Counted from the first letter of the stretch, positions 16,322 to 22,456 are shown. The stretch is 32,000 nt of DNA from Candidatus Thorarchaeota archaeon (GCA_003345555.1 PRDJ01000010.1:30001-62000), one strand, 5' to 3'. The notes: generated from the letters alone by a model not told the origin. Translations and numbers: made by a program.

Positions 16322-17357
16322 TACTCGTGATATCCTTGTTCAGTTAGGAAAGAAGGTTGTCCAGAGTATTCTGAATGAGGAGTTTCCCCGCCTCGAGATA
16401 CCTGATCGAAGTACCGACAACATAGTTTTCGACCCAGAACAGGGGCAATTTGTCCTCGGTACCACCCGTGTAATGCGAGATTCCAGCAAAATAAGGCATG
16501 TCAAGAGCTTTGCGCAATTGGTCTGGGTCGCCTCGTTCGCGAAGGACCTCTTAGATGCCTCACGGACCAGTTCACTTAGAGATCTTTACTACTCAAGCGA
16601 AGCGTTCGGTGTCAAGTTCGTTGACCAAGCCGAATCCGACCGTATCGTGGCCGACCTTGAGTCTCTGAGCGGGATGGCCCGCGAAGATTTCGGGGTCTTT
16701 CCAGAGGAGCATTCATCAGTATATGGCCAAGTGACGATGCGCTACACAGTGCCCGGGTATCTCGGGCGCGAAGTGGATCTCACTGTGAGTCCAGATGGCC
16801 TGCCAATAGGACCTGCTTTGATGACAGCTGAGCCTGTGAAGTCCAACGCAGAGATTGTGCTTGCTGTTGAGTGTGGAGGTATGTTTGCCAGACTTATCGA
16901 GACGAGGGCTTGGGAGCGGTTCAAAGCAGTGCTAATTCATCTTGGCGGGCAGCCCCCGCGTTCAACACGGCGATTAATGCGTCTGCTTCATGACAGGTTG
17001 GATTTGCCGGTCTACATTTTCACTGATGGAGACCCTTGGGGTATGCATATCGCACAAGTCATCATTACCGGAAGTGCAAACGCGGCTCACATCAGGGGGC
17101 TCACGATTCCTGATGCTAGATGGATTGGTGTCACGCCGGAAGACATCGTTGAGTATTCACTGCCATGCGATTCAATGAATGACGCCGATATTAAGCGACT
17201 GGACGAGTTGGCTCTCGACTCTAGGTACACGGGACCTGAATGGCAACAGCACATTAGTGGCTTCAAAGATCTGCGAAGAAAAGCAGAGCAGCAAGCTTTC
17301 AGCAGATATGGCATGGACTACGTGGTCGACACCTACCTGGCTGACAAGCTCGCCTAG
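16305..17357 (+). CDS. top6A: DNA topoisomerase VI subunit A
   Basis: SLRDLYY (catalytic Tyr), TOPRIM VE..GMF, FTDGDPWG, KAEQQA. ATG 16305 after GAGGGGAGTGA. Confidence 0.96.
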   Translation: MVESTNTRDILVQLGKKVVQSILNEEFPRLEIPDRSTDNIVFDPEQGQFVLGTTRVMRDSSKIRHVKSFAQLVWVASFAKDLLDASRTSSLRDLYYSSEAFGVKFVDQAESDRIVADLESLSGMAREDFGVFPEEHSSVYGQVTMRYTVPGYLGREVDLTVSPDGLPIGPALMTAEPVKSNAEIVLAVECGGMFARLIETRAWERFKAVLIHLGGQPPRSTRRLMRLLHDRLDLPVYIFTDGDPWGMHIAQVIITGSANAAHIRGLTIPDARWIGVTPEDIVEYSLPCDSMNDADIKRLDELALDSRYTGPEWQQHISGFKDLRRKAEQQAFSRYGMDYVVDTYLADKLA

Positions 17358-18391
17358 AGCCAACCTATTCCTAACGGGTGCGCCAACAGAAGAAGGAACA
17401 CACCAGTATAGGCAACCAGAATCTGAAGCAAAATCAGCAGCTTGACGTTCTTCTTCTCAGTCATTCTCTTTGACAGGTACGGCAGAATCCAGTACATCGT
17501 GTACGGTCCGGCAACTTCGAGAGTTCCATCCTGACGAGGAGCGGCGAACTTTGCATATCCGGCACCCGAGCGTCTGACATGTAATCTGTAGAAGATGTAG
17601 AGTAGGAAGTTTATGAAGTACGTGCTGAAAAGTATCACTGCGAGTCGGTCCATGTTTCCTAGAATCAGCGCAGTGGCTAGGGTCGCACCCAAAGGCAGGT
17701 TTCCGACGTCACCTGACAGAATCTTAGCGGGATATCTATTGAAGAAAAGGAATGCAAGTGATGCGCCAAACAAGGCCGCTGCCACCGTAGCGGCATTTGT
17801 TCCTGCATCTGTGATATTCTCTCCAGAGAAAAACGGGGTGAGTATGACATAGACCACAACTGCCGAGGAATTAACGCTTGCAAGTCCGGCTTCCAAACCA
17901 TTCATGCCAGCATACATATTGGTTGCATCGATTATGAACGTCATGAAGAGCGGCACGACTACCAGAGGATACAGCACGCCTAGATTCACTGTTCCAATCA
18001 AAGGAAGTGAGAAAGTGGGAATTCCAGTGGCCATTGCTACCATCGGGATAGAGGCAAGCATAGGCAGCACTATCTTTGTCCTGTTCCTGAAATCCAGATT
18101 GTCATCGAGGACTCCTATCATGCCCGCCATAAGAATGGACACGAGGGCAGCGAGAAGAGACGGGTCTACCACGTTTTCTTCTTGGAACGTAGTAATGCCT
18201 ACTACCACTAACAGACTGGTTACGATTGCAAAGAGGATAACGACCCCTCCTCCCTTCGGGATCTCTGGCCTACTCGGTTTATGGACATCGGTTCCAGTCC
18301 ATCCCTTATCTGTAAACATCCTTATCGCCTTGGGCGTAACTGCCAGTACGATCAGGAAGGAGACCATAAGAGCAATGAGGATCATGAGCAT
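17354..18391 (-). CDS. UDP-GlcNAc:dolichyl-phosphate GlcNAc-1-phosphotransferase (DPAGT1/Alg7/AglH-like, MraY family)
   Basis: DVHKP..PEIPKGGG, GVLDD, NMYAGMNGLEAG, FNRYPAKILSGDVG; polytopic membrane protein. Start ATG 18391 or TTG 18397. Confidence 0.88.
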   Translation of the reverse strand: MLMILIALMVSFLIVLAVTPKAIRMFTDKGWTGTDVHKPSRPEIPKGGGVVILFAIVTSLLVVVGITTFQEENVVDPSLLAALVSILMAGMIGVLDDNLDFRNRTKIVLPMLASIPMVAMATGIPTFSLPLIGTVNLGVLYPLVVVPLFMTFIIDATNMYAGMNGLEAGLASVNSSAVVVYVILTPFFSGENITDAGTNAATVAAALFGASLAFLFFNRYPAKILSGDVGNLPLGATLATALILGNMDRLAVILFSTYFINFLLYIFYRLHVRRSGAGYAKFAAPRQDGTLEVAGPYTMYWILPYLSKRMTEKKNVKLLILLQILVAYTGVFLLLLAHPLGIGWL

Positions 18392-18466
18392 GTACAAACC
18401 CTCGATGGAGGGGTGGCCACTTGTCCTGTTATTACACTTTTCGGACCATGCTTATCAAAGTACAAC

Positions 18467-18577: not shown

Positions 18578-21535
18578 TTGAGCCTGTTGTGTAGAAGGGT
18601 TGCCGCCCTAATGCTGCTCGTACTGCTTACTACGAGCTGTATCATGATGATTGTGCCATCGAGTGAGTATTCTGTCTCACATACGCAAGATCTCAACGCA
18701 CTACGAGCAGTAACAACCGCTCAATCTTCGCTGAATGCCTCGGTTCCATATGTAGATGTTCATTACGGTCATGCGGACGGAATTATCGACCCGACCGAAT
18801 ATGCCTACAACTACACCGATCCTGTGACTGGAATCACAATCTGTCTGGAGCACAATTCAACAATCCTCTTTGTAGGTCTGTCTGCTCACACCTCAGGTTG
18901 GGTCGCTTTCAGTTGGAAGAACGGCACTTCAGACTTCGCTGCAGAAGGCATCAATGGAAGTGATGTGGTGTTTGGATATGCACCTGGAACTCCTCACTCG
19001 GATTACCAAAGAGTCACAGGTGCTCAACCCATCACGGTACACTACAAGCTAATAATGAGAAACGGTACAGTCCTTCAAGAGGGAAATGCACCTGATGATT
19101 CCTCCACGAAAGTGTTTAGCAACGAAGGGCTCCTTCCGGCTTACAAGGCTAATATCTATGGTATGCGAATAGGCGAGGTGCGCCATTTCGTAATTCCTGC
19201 ATCTCAAGGTTATACTAGTCCAACGGACACGCTGTACGGCCAAGACTTGGAGTATATTGTCCAAGTCACCCGAATCGGCAGCAATTTCACAAACCCCGCT
19301 CAAACCAGTCGAGTCTCGTACAGCTATGGTCATGGGGTAAGCACGCTGCAGCATCTGGTCTACGCAAATCAGAGCAGGATACTATCCGCCAATGCTAGTG
19401 ACAATGGCGTCACTACCCAAGTCGAGTATTACATCAAGATGAACGGGACGGGCTCCGAAGGCATTGCCCTACAGAACTCAACAAGTCTGAGCTTCCCGTT
19501 TCTTCTCATGTTTTCCAGCAGTGAGGATTTAGATGCTTTGCCCACTCAACACAGTGACTGGTCATACCCTCTTGAGGTTCAGATGATACCCAATGCAGCG
19601 CCCTTGCTCCTGCTTCAGAGTCCCAAGGTAAATGAATCGCTGACATGGGTTGCCGACATAGCTCTGAACGCGACTGATAACACGTTCGTCAGGAGGGCAT
19701 TCTACAAAGTAGACGAAGGGAACTGGACGAAGCTGAATCACAACTTCAACACATCATTATGGGAAGCCGTGGTCGCCCTTGCAAAGTACTCAAATGGGAC
19801 TCACTTGTTCCGATTTAATGCTACAGATCCATCGAATCTAACATCAGTTGTGTCGTTCAACCTTACAATTAGCCGGCCATACCTTTCGCTATTGGGGATG
19901 CGTCTGAGTGTCAGTCGGACAGTGAGCGACTTGACCTATCACACGACGCAGGTGGCCGATGTGTTTACAATCGTGAACAACGGCTCTGCGCCGATTAGCG
20001 CATTTGAGATGTACCTGCCTTCCACATACATGTCCAACTTCCTCTCCCTATCCGCAGAGGACGGTTCCAAGAGGCCACTCAGCGTTATACGACTCAATAA
20101 CACCGGGGAGCTGATGCATTGGCGAATCTATCTGTTCGAGCCAGCTGGGTTCGGGGAGTTGCACACTGTCAAGACCATCATGTATCTGCACTCTATCGAC
20201 GCTCTGAACGATTTCAGCAACAATCGCTACCAGATAGCATTCTTGAAGTACCCTGTGGTCCCGTATGTTTTATCTTCTGCAACGTTAACCCTTGCCCTTC
20301 GGAGCGGCGAAACTGGTCTTGGATCATCTCCTGAGGGACGAGCCAGCGATCTCCCTCCAATGACAATAACGCCGTTCACGTTTCTGATGACTTCGTATTC
20401 CCCGATGATACTGGCAACTAGAGTAACTGACATCACAGTGGATCCTTGGGGCTGGCTGACGTATCAGGAGACAATCACAATCAAGAACACAGGGCCCGCA
20501 ACCGAGAGCTCCATAGTGTTGACTATCCCTGCATATTCCTCGAATATCAAAATATACGACACAGTGGGTCTCCTCACATCTACGCAACTCTCTCTTCAGG
20601 GCAAACCTTGGAATAGTTCAATCTCTCTCACAGTCAACCTCAAGACCGACCGATTCGGTGACGACTTCTGGCCAGGCAATGAATACACTTTCCAGCTTTC
20701 ATACAGGCTCTTGTCCTCTGCTCATCAGAATTCAACTCCCGCTGGCGACGTTCTGAGAATCCCGGTGAGCGATCTGGGAAACCTGAGAATCACCAAGCAA
20801 ATCATCAATCTGATTTTGCCCATCTCGGTTAGCGTGCGGGAAGTATCTTCGGGCTATAGGCTCCTCTACGGTGTCTTTGGCACCATACTTAGGTATACAG
20901 TATACAATACGACCTCGTACAATTCGCCTGAAATATCGTTGAGCTATGACATCTCCGTTTGGACTGTGGCAAGGCCATTGATGTTCTCGCTAATCGTGGG
21001 CTTGGTAGCAATCGCCTACATATCTTACAGAAAGCTCTGGACTCCGGCAGCGGTCGCAGCCGAGGCTGGGTCAGAAGCTCCTACAACCGCAACCAAGCAG
21101 GCCCTCGCTCCACCCGAGCTACTACGGAAATTCGCTGCCACCTACTCGAAGAAGACGTCACTTGAGCTGGATTTGGAGAGACTCGAGGATGATTTGAAGA
21201 GAGGCAAAGTGAAGAAGAGAGAGTTCATGGTTCGGGATAGCGATATCAAGTCACAAATGGATGGAATAGACAAGGACTTGATTGCGCTCAAGAATGAAGT
21301 TGTCTCACACGGGCCGAAGTACAGGGATATGGTAGCTCAGCTAGATCTTCAAGAAGAACGAATCGCAGGTGCCAAAGCCGGTCTCAGGCAGCTTCTGCTT
21401 CGCAGAAAGAAGCAAAAAATCAGTTCTGGTGCCTTTGAAAGGACTCGTCAAGACTACCTCAAAGCTATCAAGAAAGCCGTAACAGCTACTGACCGAATAC
21501 TCCTGACAATTCAGGAGGAAGCAGGGGAGGTCTAG
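18578..21535 (+). CDS. Single-pass membrane glycoprotein: DOMON-like domain with FKBP-like insertion, Ig-like domain, ribophorin-I-like luminal region, TM helix and cytoplasmic helical bundle
   Basis: N-terminal signal/TM; DGIIDPTEY and GWVAFSW...GSDVVFG (DOMON); TVHY...GMRIGEVRHFVIPASQGY (FKBP); RVTDITVDPWGWLTYQETITIKNTG (ribophorin I R.IEVSHWG.I.VEE-like); TM LMFSLIVGLVAIAYISY; Lys/Arg/Glu-rich helical tail; more than 20 N-X-S/T sequons. Confidence 0.72.
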   Translation: MSLLCRRVAALMLLVLLTTSCIMMIVPSSEYSVSHTQDLNALRAVTTAQSSLNASVPYVDVHYGHADGIIDPTEYAYNYTDPVTGITICLEHNSTILFVGLSAHTSGWVAFSWKNGTSDFAAEGINGSDVVFGYAPGTPHSDYQRVTGAQPITVHYKLIMRNGTVLQEGNAPDDSSTKVFSNEGLLPAYKANIYGMRIGEVRHFVIPASQGYTSPTDTLYGQDLEYIVQVTRIGSNFTNPAQTSRVSYSYGHGVSTLQHLVYANQSRILSANASDNGVTTQVEYYIKMNGTGSEGIALQNSTSLSFPFLLMFSSSEDLDALPTQHSDWSYPLEVQMIPNAAPLLLLQSPKVNESLTWVADIALNATDNTFVRRAFYKVDEGNWTKLNHNFNTSLWEAVVALAKYSNGTHLFRFNATDPSNLTSVVSFNLTISRPYLSLLGMRLSVSRTVSDLTYHTTQVADVFTIVNNGSAPISAFEMYLPSTYMSNFLSLSAEDGSKRPLSVIRLNNTGELMHWRIYLFEPAGFGELHTVKTIMYLHSIDALNDFSNNRYQIAFLKYPVVPYVLSSATLTLALRSGETGLGSSPEGRASDLPPMTITPFTFLMTSYSPMILATRVTDITVDPWGWLTYQETITIKNTGPATESSIVLTIPAYSSNIKIYDTVGLLTSTQLSLQGKPWNSSISLTVNLKTDRFGDDFWPGNEYTFQLSYRLLSSAHQNSTPAGDVLRIPVSDLGNLRITKQIINLILPISVSVREVSSGYRLLYGVFGTILRYTVYNTTSYNSPEISLSYDISVWTVARPLMFSLIVGLVAIAYISYRKLWTPAAVAAEAGSEAPTTATKQALAPPELLRKFAATYSKKTSLELDLERLEDDLKRGKVKKREFMVRDSDIKSQMDGIDKDLIALKNEVVSHGPKYRDMVAQLDLQEERIAGAKAGLRQLLLRRKKQKISSGAFERTRQDYLKAIKKAVTATDRILLTIQEEAGEV

Positions 21536-21586: not shown

Positions 21587-22456
21587 ATGGGGCGCAAAGC
21601 CATGGCCAGAGGAACAGCATTCGACCGTGAAAGGGTCAGCGTCCGCAGTCTCCTGAAACCGGGTACCAAGGCGCTGGAAATGTATCAGTATCTAAGCATG
21701 TCGCCAAAGGTCCAGACCTACTTACGAAGTGCAAATCGGATGGCGGTGTCGAGACTGGGCTATACAGACCATGGTCCAACGCATGCAGAAGTGAGCACAT
21801 GGAATGCTCTCACGGCATTTGATATCCTGTCCGACACCTTTCAGCCCAATGTGGTTGCAGAAGGAATAGGTGACATTGACGATGCACGCATGGTGGTCCT
21901 TGCTTCCACGTACCTTCATGACATAGGCATGGTTGTTCATCGGAACGAGCATCCACAAGCTGGAGTCTTTCTAGCCAGTAGCATCCTTGAAGATAAGCTC
22001 GGAGCACTCTACGAGGATCCCGCAAAAGCAACCGACATACTGTCTTTTGTGCTCCACGGCGTATATTCGCACGATGACGATACTCCGTGCCTGACTTTCG
22101 AGGCCGGCGTGACCAAGCTAGGCGACGGCTGCGATATGACGAAAGGAAGAACATCGATACCCTATCAGCAAGGCAAGGTCGACATCCACTCAGTGAGTGC
22201 CATGGCGATCAATGATGTGTACCTGGAACATGGCGAAGAGAAGCCGCTTCTGATATCCGTCGACATGGACAACCCTGCGGGTGTTTTTCAAGTTGAGGCG
22301 GTTCTTGAGAAGAAGGTATCAACATCGGGATTGGAAGGCAATCTGGCCATAGTAGTACTAGTCAACGGCGAACGGCTGGTTCTTTCGCAAGTCAAGAGAC
22401 TGTTCAGGGTCCAGATGACGGATTCGCCGCCTGAGATGAGTGTCAAGGAAAAATGA
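21587..22456 (+). CDS. HD-superfamily metal-dependent phosphohydrolase (COG3294-like)
   Basis: DHGPTH, YLHDIG, HD, LGDGCDMTKGR, DIHSVSA, NPAGVFQVE. Confidence 0.85.
   Translation: MGRKAMARGTAFDRERVSVRSLLKPGTKALEMYQYLSMSPKVQTYLRSANRMAVSRLGYTDHGPTHAEVSTWNALTAFDILSDTFQPNVVAEGIGDIDDARMVVLASTYLHDIGMVVHRNEHPQAGVFLASSILEDKLGALYEDPAKATDILSFVLHGVYSHDDDTPCLTFEAGVTKLGDGCDMTKGRTSIPYQQGKVDIHSVSAMAINDVYLEHGEEKPLLISVDMDNPAGVFQVEAVLEKKVSTSGLEGNLAIVVLVNGERLVLSQVKRLFRVQMTDSPPEMSVKEK

Follow-up and report, generated by a model that had tools for sequence, protein, structure and literature searches.

A DOMON domain interrupted by an FKBP-like domain extends ribophorin I (OST1) in the archaeal order Thorarchaeales

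Introduction

What is an FKBP domain doing in a subunit of oligosaccharyltransferase (OST)? The question is raised by a stretch of 32,000 nucleotides of Candidatus Thorarchaeota archaeon DNA (GCA_003345555.1, PRDJ01000010.1:30001-62000; here called the window), in which positions 18578-21535 (+) hold an intact 985-codon open reading frame (ORF) with a TTG start and zero internal stops. An earlier annotation made from the sequence alone (the original prediction) proposed that the ORF encodes a ribophorin-I-like protein fused to a DOMON domain, itself carrying an inserted FKBP-like domain, and that this architecture was known from no described protein. Asgard homologues of ribophorin I (OST1) are already known (PMC10307638, PMC11417166); what is new is an N-terminal extension of this known OST subunit, DOMON(FKBP)-Ig (Ig, immunoglobulin-like), that is confined to one order.

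The claim of novelty holds, as no description of a DOMON-FKBP-OST1 fusion was found by title or abstract in a literature search whose coverage excludes subscription journals, and FKBP is unmentioned in PMC10307638 and PMC11417166, the most relevant two papers on Asgard OST1. Database labels such as "FKBP-type PPIase" (PPIase, peptidyl-prolyl isomerase) or "hypothetical" hide the Thorarchaeales OST1 proteins from Pfam-based surveys. The architecture bears on two wider problems: the role of ribophorin I toward the clients of OST has been only loosely defined so far, and it is debated whether FKBP11 acts as an enzyme or as an adaptor at the human translocon.

Identity of the Gene Product

Fold models, Foldseek searches and orthologue comparison identify the 985-residue product as an OST1/ribophorin I orthologue with an N-terminal DOMON(FKBP)-Ig extension, and we hold the OST1 assignment with high confidence, far more securely than any functional reading discussed below. 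All eight of the best Foldseek matches of the full-length model (predicted local distance difference test, pLDDT, 85) come from human or yeast OST structures (E 5e-28 to 4e-16), the chains being taken as RPN1/Ost1 by their length. Residues 438-795 (19889-20962; all coordinates within the protein are on the + strand) form the two tandem extracytoplasmic beta-sandwiches of the RPN1 fold, as judged by Foldseek and by homology to short Asgard OST1 proteins; the Pfam model PF04597 (Ribophorin_I) scores the ORF protein at 18.4 bits, below its cut-off of 25. The cytoplasmic four-helix bundle at residues 842-985 (21101-21532) is the most conserved part of the protein (73% mean identity) and is homologous to the ribosome-binding domain of OST1 from Ca. 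Prometheoarchaeum syntrophicum MK-D1, with residues 842-975 matching PDB 8WHN at E 2.5e-7, or 1.3e-9 with a profile. The ribophorin-I identity first proposed is thus upheld both by the Foldseek matches to RPN1/Ost1 and by the match of the tail. OST1 is single copy in its own genome, which also encodes AglB/STT3; profile searches of the genome with PF04597 and OST48_N gave no match, and as neither model matched in any control, both searches are uninformative.

The full-length model runs from a signal helix through DOMON(FKBP), Ig and two beta-sandwiches to a transmembrane (TM) helix and four cytoplasmic helices, and each of the structural claims of the original prediction agrees with AlphaFold2 models, Foldseek, and structure and profile alignments. 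Hydropathy finds two hydrophobic stretches, at residues ~1-30 and ~792-818, which fit a type I topology with a putative N-terminal signal peptide or anchor (residues 1-30, 18578-18667; helix 3-20 in the model) and a single C-proximal TM helix (residues 796-820, 20963-21037; hydropathy and model). Sequons, predicted to exceed 20, number 24, all in the ectodomain (residues 53-777), and 13 of them are retained in at least 50 of 65 orthologues.

The arrangement of signal peptide, two ribophorin domains, one TM helix and four-helix bundle is common to MK-D1 OST1 (607 residues; 8WHN; PMC11417166), from which the Thorarchaeal protein differs by ~390 extra N-terminal residues that make up the DOMON, FKBP and Ig domains. 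Other Asgard OST1 proteins occupy open frames of ~580-660 residues without DOMON-FKBP-Ig and align to residues ~425-985. Human RPN1 and yeast Ost1 (8B6L chain O, 6S7O chain E, 6EZN chain A) have the same topology and are the top structural matches, but they are 12-15% identical and have no fused DOMON or FKBP; FKBP11, CCDC134 and malectin are recruited in eukaryotes as separate proteins. The cytoplasmic domain of MK-D1 OST1 pulls down ribosomes (PMC11417166), and from homology to that protein we infer that Thorarchaeales OST1 associates with AglB and the ribosome. It would then be a subunit of a co-translational OST composed of AglB, OST1 and a short DC2-like OST3/6-family protein, with its cytoplasmic bundle anchoring it at the ribosome and translocon, and its two ribophorin domains, again judging from homology, packing against AglB outside the cell.

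A DOMON Domain Interrupted by an FKBP Domain

Structure and profile alignments place the N-terminal half of the DOMON domain at residues 53-138 (18734-18991) and the C-terminal half at residues 240-337 (19295-19588). Between them, at residues 146-234 (19013-19279), lies an FKBP domain without IF subdomain, delimited by Pfam, Foldseek and structure alignment. An AlphaFold2 model of residues 52-338 (pLDDT 93.5; predicted template modeling score, pTM, 0.89) aligns over its whole range to DOMON-family structures in VIA-align, with 2ivf_C at Z 15.8 (root mean square deviation, rmsd, 2.8; 168 aligned residues), 7b04_C at Z 14.0, DBH 4zel at 13.4, CDH-type cytochromes at 12.6-12.7 and CBM9 at 12.3; the DOMON fold also has an atlas template modeling score of 0.53 to the PF03351 cluster. 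Model residues 93-184 (residues 144-235 of the protein) align to FKBPs, among them SlyD 3cgm (Z 12.4, rmsd 1.9), and Foldseek concurs, so the FKBP fold expected at about residues 150-233 is confirmed. The Pfam FKBP_C model matches residues 149-216 with a score at its cut-off. A profile alignment to uninterrupted Asgard DOMON-TM proteins (HH probability 99.6) contains a single insertion of ~100 columns, at the FKBP site. Residues 340-433 (19595-19876) are modeled as an all-beta Ig-type sandwich that we describe as a Big_7-type linker, Big_7 scoring above cut-off in the equivalent region of the sister-family orthologue.

Does the DOMON domain bind heme? Heme-type DOMONs (the EBDH gamma subunit 2IVF_C, CDH cytochrome and PF03351 Asgard surface proteins) have the same sandwich, and the Thorarchaeal domain mostly retains the heme-ligand His, but it has Leu, Ile or Phe in place of the ligand Met and is interrupted by the FKBP. 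In this protein Ile125 (18950-18952) occupies the Met position, as had been suspected. Among 69 orthologues of this protein's family, drawn from GTDB species and used for all residue counts given here, that position is Leu in 64 and Ile in five, and it is Phe in the sister family; the His position (His325) is His in 57 and Arg in 10. Free Asgard DOMONs retain Met and His in at least 90% of rows. The Met and His axial-ligand pair that marks a heme-binding DOMON is therefore incomplete, and because the Met ligand is absent in 69/69 orthologues, usual heme binding is unlikely; a heme-binding cytochrome was ruled out as the main reading on this ground.

A looser version of this idea takes the DOMON as a ligand-binding unit, either a CBM9-like glycan lectin comparable with malectin on RPN1 or a heme or redox unit, in a module that performs glycoprotein quality control. 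DOMON domains do bind heme or sugars (PMC4846438), the CBM9 alignment noted above fits a lectin, His325 is mostly retained and His259 is retained in 64/69 orthologues, and animal malectin is reported to act via ribophorin I (PMC9144812). The lost Met in both families and the replacement of His325 by Arg in 10 orthologues speak against it, however, as do the nearest sequence relatives, which are Met/His heme-type DOMONs rather than CBM9, and we consider this reading improbable. Exported DOMON-TM proteins of other Asgard families (L140-L153, P0130, P0147, P0150) retain the Met/His heme ligands, and some have tandem DOMONs.

Distribution of the Fusion

The original prediction would have fallen had the fusion been unique to one contig; it is instead lineage-wide. 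In a survey of 250 Asgard genomes, the intact module is present in 57/59 and 1/1 genomes of two Thorarchaeales families (58/60 in all), whereas in the 190 non-Thorarchaeales Asgard genomes it was not found and only FKBP-alone or DOMON-alone matches occurred. Full-length orthologues were recovered from 24/24 sampled genomes of the same family (in two of these the gene is split or truncated by a contig end) and from the single sister-family genome; a misassembly or one-contig artifact is ruled out by such orthologues across the family, the sister family and the order. Outside Thorarchaeales, a nested DOMON-FKBP was found neither among 1.84 billion representatives in a profile search, nor among near-length homologues, nor in the 190 Asgard genomes. 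The OST1 homologues carry the label Candidatus Thorarchaeota. One 60%-identical match is labeled Deltaproteobacteria; it lies on a contig of 2.6 kb and has probably been mis-binned.

The fusion also shows that the elaboration of Asgard OST complexes took place separately in individual lineages. As Thorarchaeales are not the sister group of eukaryotes, it is a parallel to the eukaryotic FKBP-OST arrangement and not its ancestor. The existence of a lineage with an FKBP-OST1 fusion suggests that an FKBP at the exit of the translocon has been selected for more than once.

The FKBP Pocket and Its Possible Function

With positions assigned from ungapped alignments to solved FKBPs, the pocket of the insert reads, in FKBP12 numbering, Y26 = Y156, F36 = L166, D37 = Q167, I56 = L186, W59 = Y189, Y82 = Y212 and F99 = Y226, which bears out the predicted loss of the Phe-Asp pair (FD to LQ). 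Across the orthologues, Y26 and Y82 are each invariant (69/69), the I56 position is Leu in all 69, the F36 position is mostly Ile, Leu or Val, D37 is replaced by Gln (54) or Glu (14) and kept as Asp in one, and W59 and F99 are each Tyr in 68/69. The canonical pocket (Y26, F36, D37, I56, W59 or Phe, Y82, F99) is therefore absent from this protein and from nearly its whole family, and present in the sister family, two proteins of which (L026, P0127) keep F36, D37, V55, I56, Y82 and F99. The insert has a mean identity of 58.7%, compared with 42.7% and 46.7% for the ribophorin domains and 44.6% for the Ig linker; being more conserved than the ribophorin domains, it is not decaying, and at the level of sequence it is a maintained but remodeled pocket. 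SlyD and archaeal short FKBPs have the same fold, but the insert differs from them in its remodeled pocket, in being nested inside another domain, and in lacking the SlyD-type IF chaperone subdomain, its flap being ~12 residues long. The flap and last-strand motif are common to the exported FKBP-TM proteins of Asgard archaea, some of which likewise have Tyr at F99.

The original prediction saw here a built-in prolyl isomerase, and in this reading the FKBP is an active extracytoplasmic enzyme wired to OST, whose isomerization of X-Pro bonds in emerging proteins ties folding to N-glycosylation. It would account for the invariance of Y26, Y82 and the hydrophobic I56 position, and it gains from SlyD D23A (the D37 equivalent), which retains 78% activity (PMC5034536). 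The genome itself, 93% complete, yielded no cyclophilin and no second exported FKBP: the OST1 insert is the only FKBP found with an export signal, the other FKBP being of the cytosolic FKBP26 type. Yet F99 is replaced in nearly all orthologues and F36 in most, and all three pocket changes are fixed family-wide. SlyD F128A (the F99 equivalent) keeps 30-40% of activity (PMC5034536), and FKBP52 F130Y, which corresponds to F99 by established numbering, is reported to abolish PPIase activity while retaining the protein-interaction function (PMC4514735, PMC12718141). Loss of Phe-Asp together with F99 to Tyr, seen against the inactive FKBP52 F130Y, weakens the isomerase reading, which we judge unlikely for this protein and its family; it is plausible for the sister family, where the canonical pocket makes it more likely.

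We tentatively favor, at somewhat less than an even chance, a module that holds clients or serves as an adaptor on the co-translational OST and that, in this family, isomerizes prolyl bonds weakly if at all. The FKBP would be a tethered site beside the translocon exit and AglB site, where it would either dock a partner or hold segments of emerging secreted proteins that contain proline or are hydrophobic; a similarly weak or missing catalytic activity has been proposed for human FKBP11. That protein binds the SEC61-OST-A translocon as an adaptor, and its nominal catalytic site, buried by CCDC134, is proposed to act as a docking surface (PDB 9N9J/9YGY; PMC12804085). Like the insert, which matches its fold at Z 10.2, FKBP11 places a lumenal, membrane-anchored FKBP at the ribosome-translocon-OST assembly; unlike the insert, which is permanently fused and nested in a DOMON, it is a separate protein, dynamically recruited, with its own ribosome-binding helix. 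The likeness is one of analogy, and we claim no orthology. The thioredoxin domain of OST3/6, with which the extension was originally compared, is a less close analogue than FKBP11, and the OST3/6-family protein of this genome has only 147 residues and resembles just the membrane part of that family.

Several observations weigh against the client-holding or adaptor module. Loss of D37 alone is not fatal, as the SlyD variant shows (PMC5034536), and a natural F99Y in a co-evolved pocket may behave differently from an engineered one. Client affinity could not come from an IF chaperone subdomain, which the insert lacks. In a few Thorarchaeota, DOMON-FKBP-Ig-Ig-TM paralogues bear the module without ribophorin and so make it separable from OST. 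Finally, the whole block around the gene, including Top6 and Gcv, is syntenic, which leaves the adjacency of an AglH-like gene (see below) only moderately specific.

A broader possibility, which we regard as doubtful, is that Thorarchaeales independently built a permanent folding station on their co-translational OST by hard-wiring an FKBP to its ribosome-binding subunit. The FKBP would still act as an enzyme in one family, would have become a trap for clients or partners in the other, and would work together with the DOMON gained by AglB; in that case the Thorarchaeal protein would be a prokaryotic equivalent, in a single chain, of the human FKBP11/OST-A assembly. Sister families with canonical and remodeled pockets make the enzyme-or-adaptor question testable on two soluble fragments of 290 residues.

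Paralogues and Origin of the Module

The paralogues carry DOMON(FKBP)-Ig on an Ig-TM stalk (L031:3525-5318 (+); L103, P0048, P0085, P0090, P0124-P0126). Apart from the OST1 proteins themselves, they were the sole carriers of the nested module in the profile search of 1.84 billion representatives. They suggest a reading in which the extension is a surface appendix that has no role in glycosylation and uses OST1 as a mere membrane anchor, since here the same module sits on a plain Ig-Ig-TM stalk. They are rare, however (two of about 70 genomes), and in a quick FKBP tree of 94 columns they nest within the OST1 clade and so look like later partial copies; the fusion is also near-universal in Thorarchaeales and better conserved than the ribophorin domains. 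We consider the appendix highly improbable.

The building blocks exist separately in other Asgard families, as exported DOMON-TM proteins with Met and His and as FKBP-TM proteins with basic or Cys-rich cytoplasmic tails. The insert clusters with exported FKBPs in trees with moderate support, a result that serves as a lead only, the comparison sequences having been chosen by similarity. A free tree splits the FKBP inserts of the two families, and their common grouping is not rejected by the approximately unbiased test (p-AU 0.09, 96 columns). In the Thorarchaeales ancestor, a surface DOMON may have lost its heme Met, gained an FKBP in a hairpin loop and joined OST1 via an Ig spacer; remodeling of the FKBP pocket in this protein's family would have been followed by strong conservation.

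The standalone exported FKBPs of other Asgard families (L120-L131, L138, L139, L157, L158, L032) are built from a signal peptide, an FKBP, one TM helix and a cytoplasmic tail, a layout that recalls human FKBP11. Their tails are of two kinds, one Cys-rich (6-8 Cys, B-box-like) and the other strongly charged. One subgroup has Tyr at F99 and no D37.

Other OST Components and Gene Neighborhood

The genome encodes one AglB, and this too ends in a DOMON/CBM9-like domain of ~180 residues (L155:837-1382 (-); contig C26:2336-2881 in the same genome). The tail matches Asgard DOMONs at HH probability 96.1 (E 3e-9) and the EB_dh/CBM9_1 clusters at 0.92 in atlas features. It occurs in 57/59 and 1/1 Thorarchaeales genomes, the same distribution as the OST1 module, and a search for it elsewhere in Asgard archaea matched only short standalone DOMON proteins and no other Asgard AglB. 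In this clade, then, each of the two large OST subunits has a DOMON-like domain; this is one event and not a statistical association.

The module might then be an architectural scaffold that, together with the AglB tail, forms an enlarged outer OST platform in place of the lumenal domains of RPN2 and OST48, with no client contact. The matching DOMON-like tail fits this picture, as does the report by Eme et al. that WBP1/SWP1 homologues occur only in Heimdallarchaeia (PMC10307638). Yet a common distribution that reflects one evolutionary event is not independent support, AglB tails vary anyway (other Asgard AglBs lie in open frames of 590-1305 residues), and a scaffold leaves the invariant aromatics of the FKBP pocket unexplained. 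A complex prediction for the OST1 ectodomain (residues 52-795) with the AglB tail scored 0.00 and weighs neither way. We find a pure scaffold distinctly less likely than a module that holds clients or docks a partner. The third presumed component, the 147-residue OST3/6-family protein, is encoded ~4 kb from aglB (L193:1495-1938 (-), contig C26); it has no thioredoxin domain, and its match to the Pfam model is confined to the membrane part, which suggests a DC2/OSTC-like protein and a co-translational type of OST.

Upstream of OST1 and divergently transcribed lies a Glycos_transf_4 gene (17354-18397 (-); Pfam and neighborhood comparison) for an AglH/Alg7/DPAGT1-like GlcNAc-1-P transferase. At every Thorarchaeales OST1 locus with enough upstream sequence it stands head to head with OST1, even where Top6 is missing. 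Four contigs at least 99% alike, all from one metatranscriptome, fall inside the OST1 gene, none on its neighbors and none bridging a domain junction; they are a weak hint of OST1 expression, as contigs cannot prove transcription.

Several Thorarchaeota genomes (L044, L085, L086, L097, L105, L112) lack Top6B/Top6A upstream of the AglH-like gene, in a block that is otherwise conserved. In another Asgard family, a Glycos_transf_4-like gene adjoins a short OST1 (L036:4762-6144 (+)), which hints that the link is older than the fusion. Downstream, an HD-domain gene (window 21587-22456 (+)) follows OST1 in both Thorarchaeales families, wherever the locus extends that far. Further along the sister-family locus (L190:6763-9781) are genes for a BBS-like beta-propeller protein, a PadR protein and an actin.

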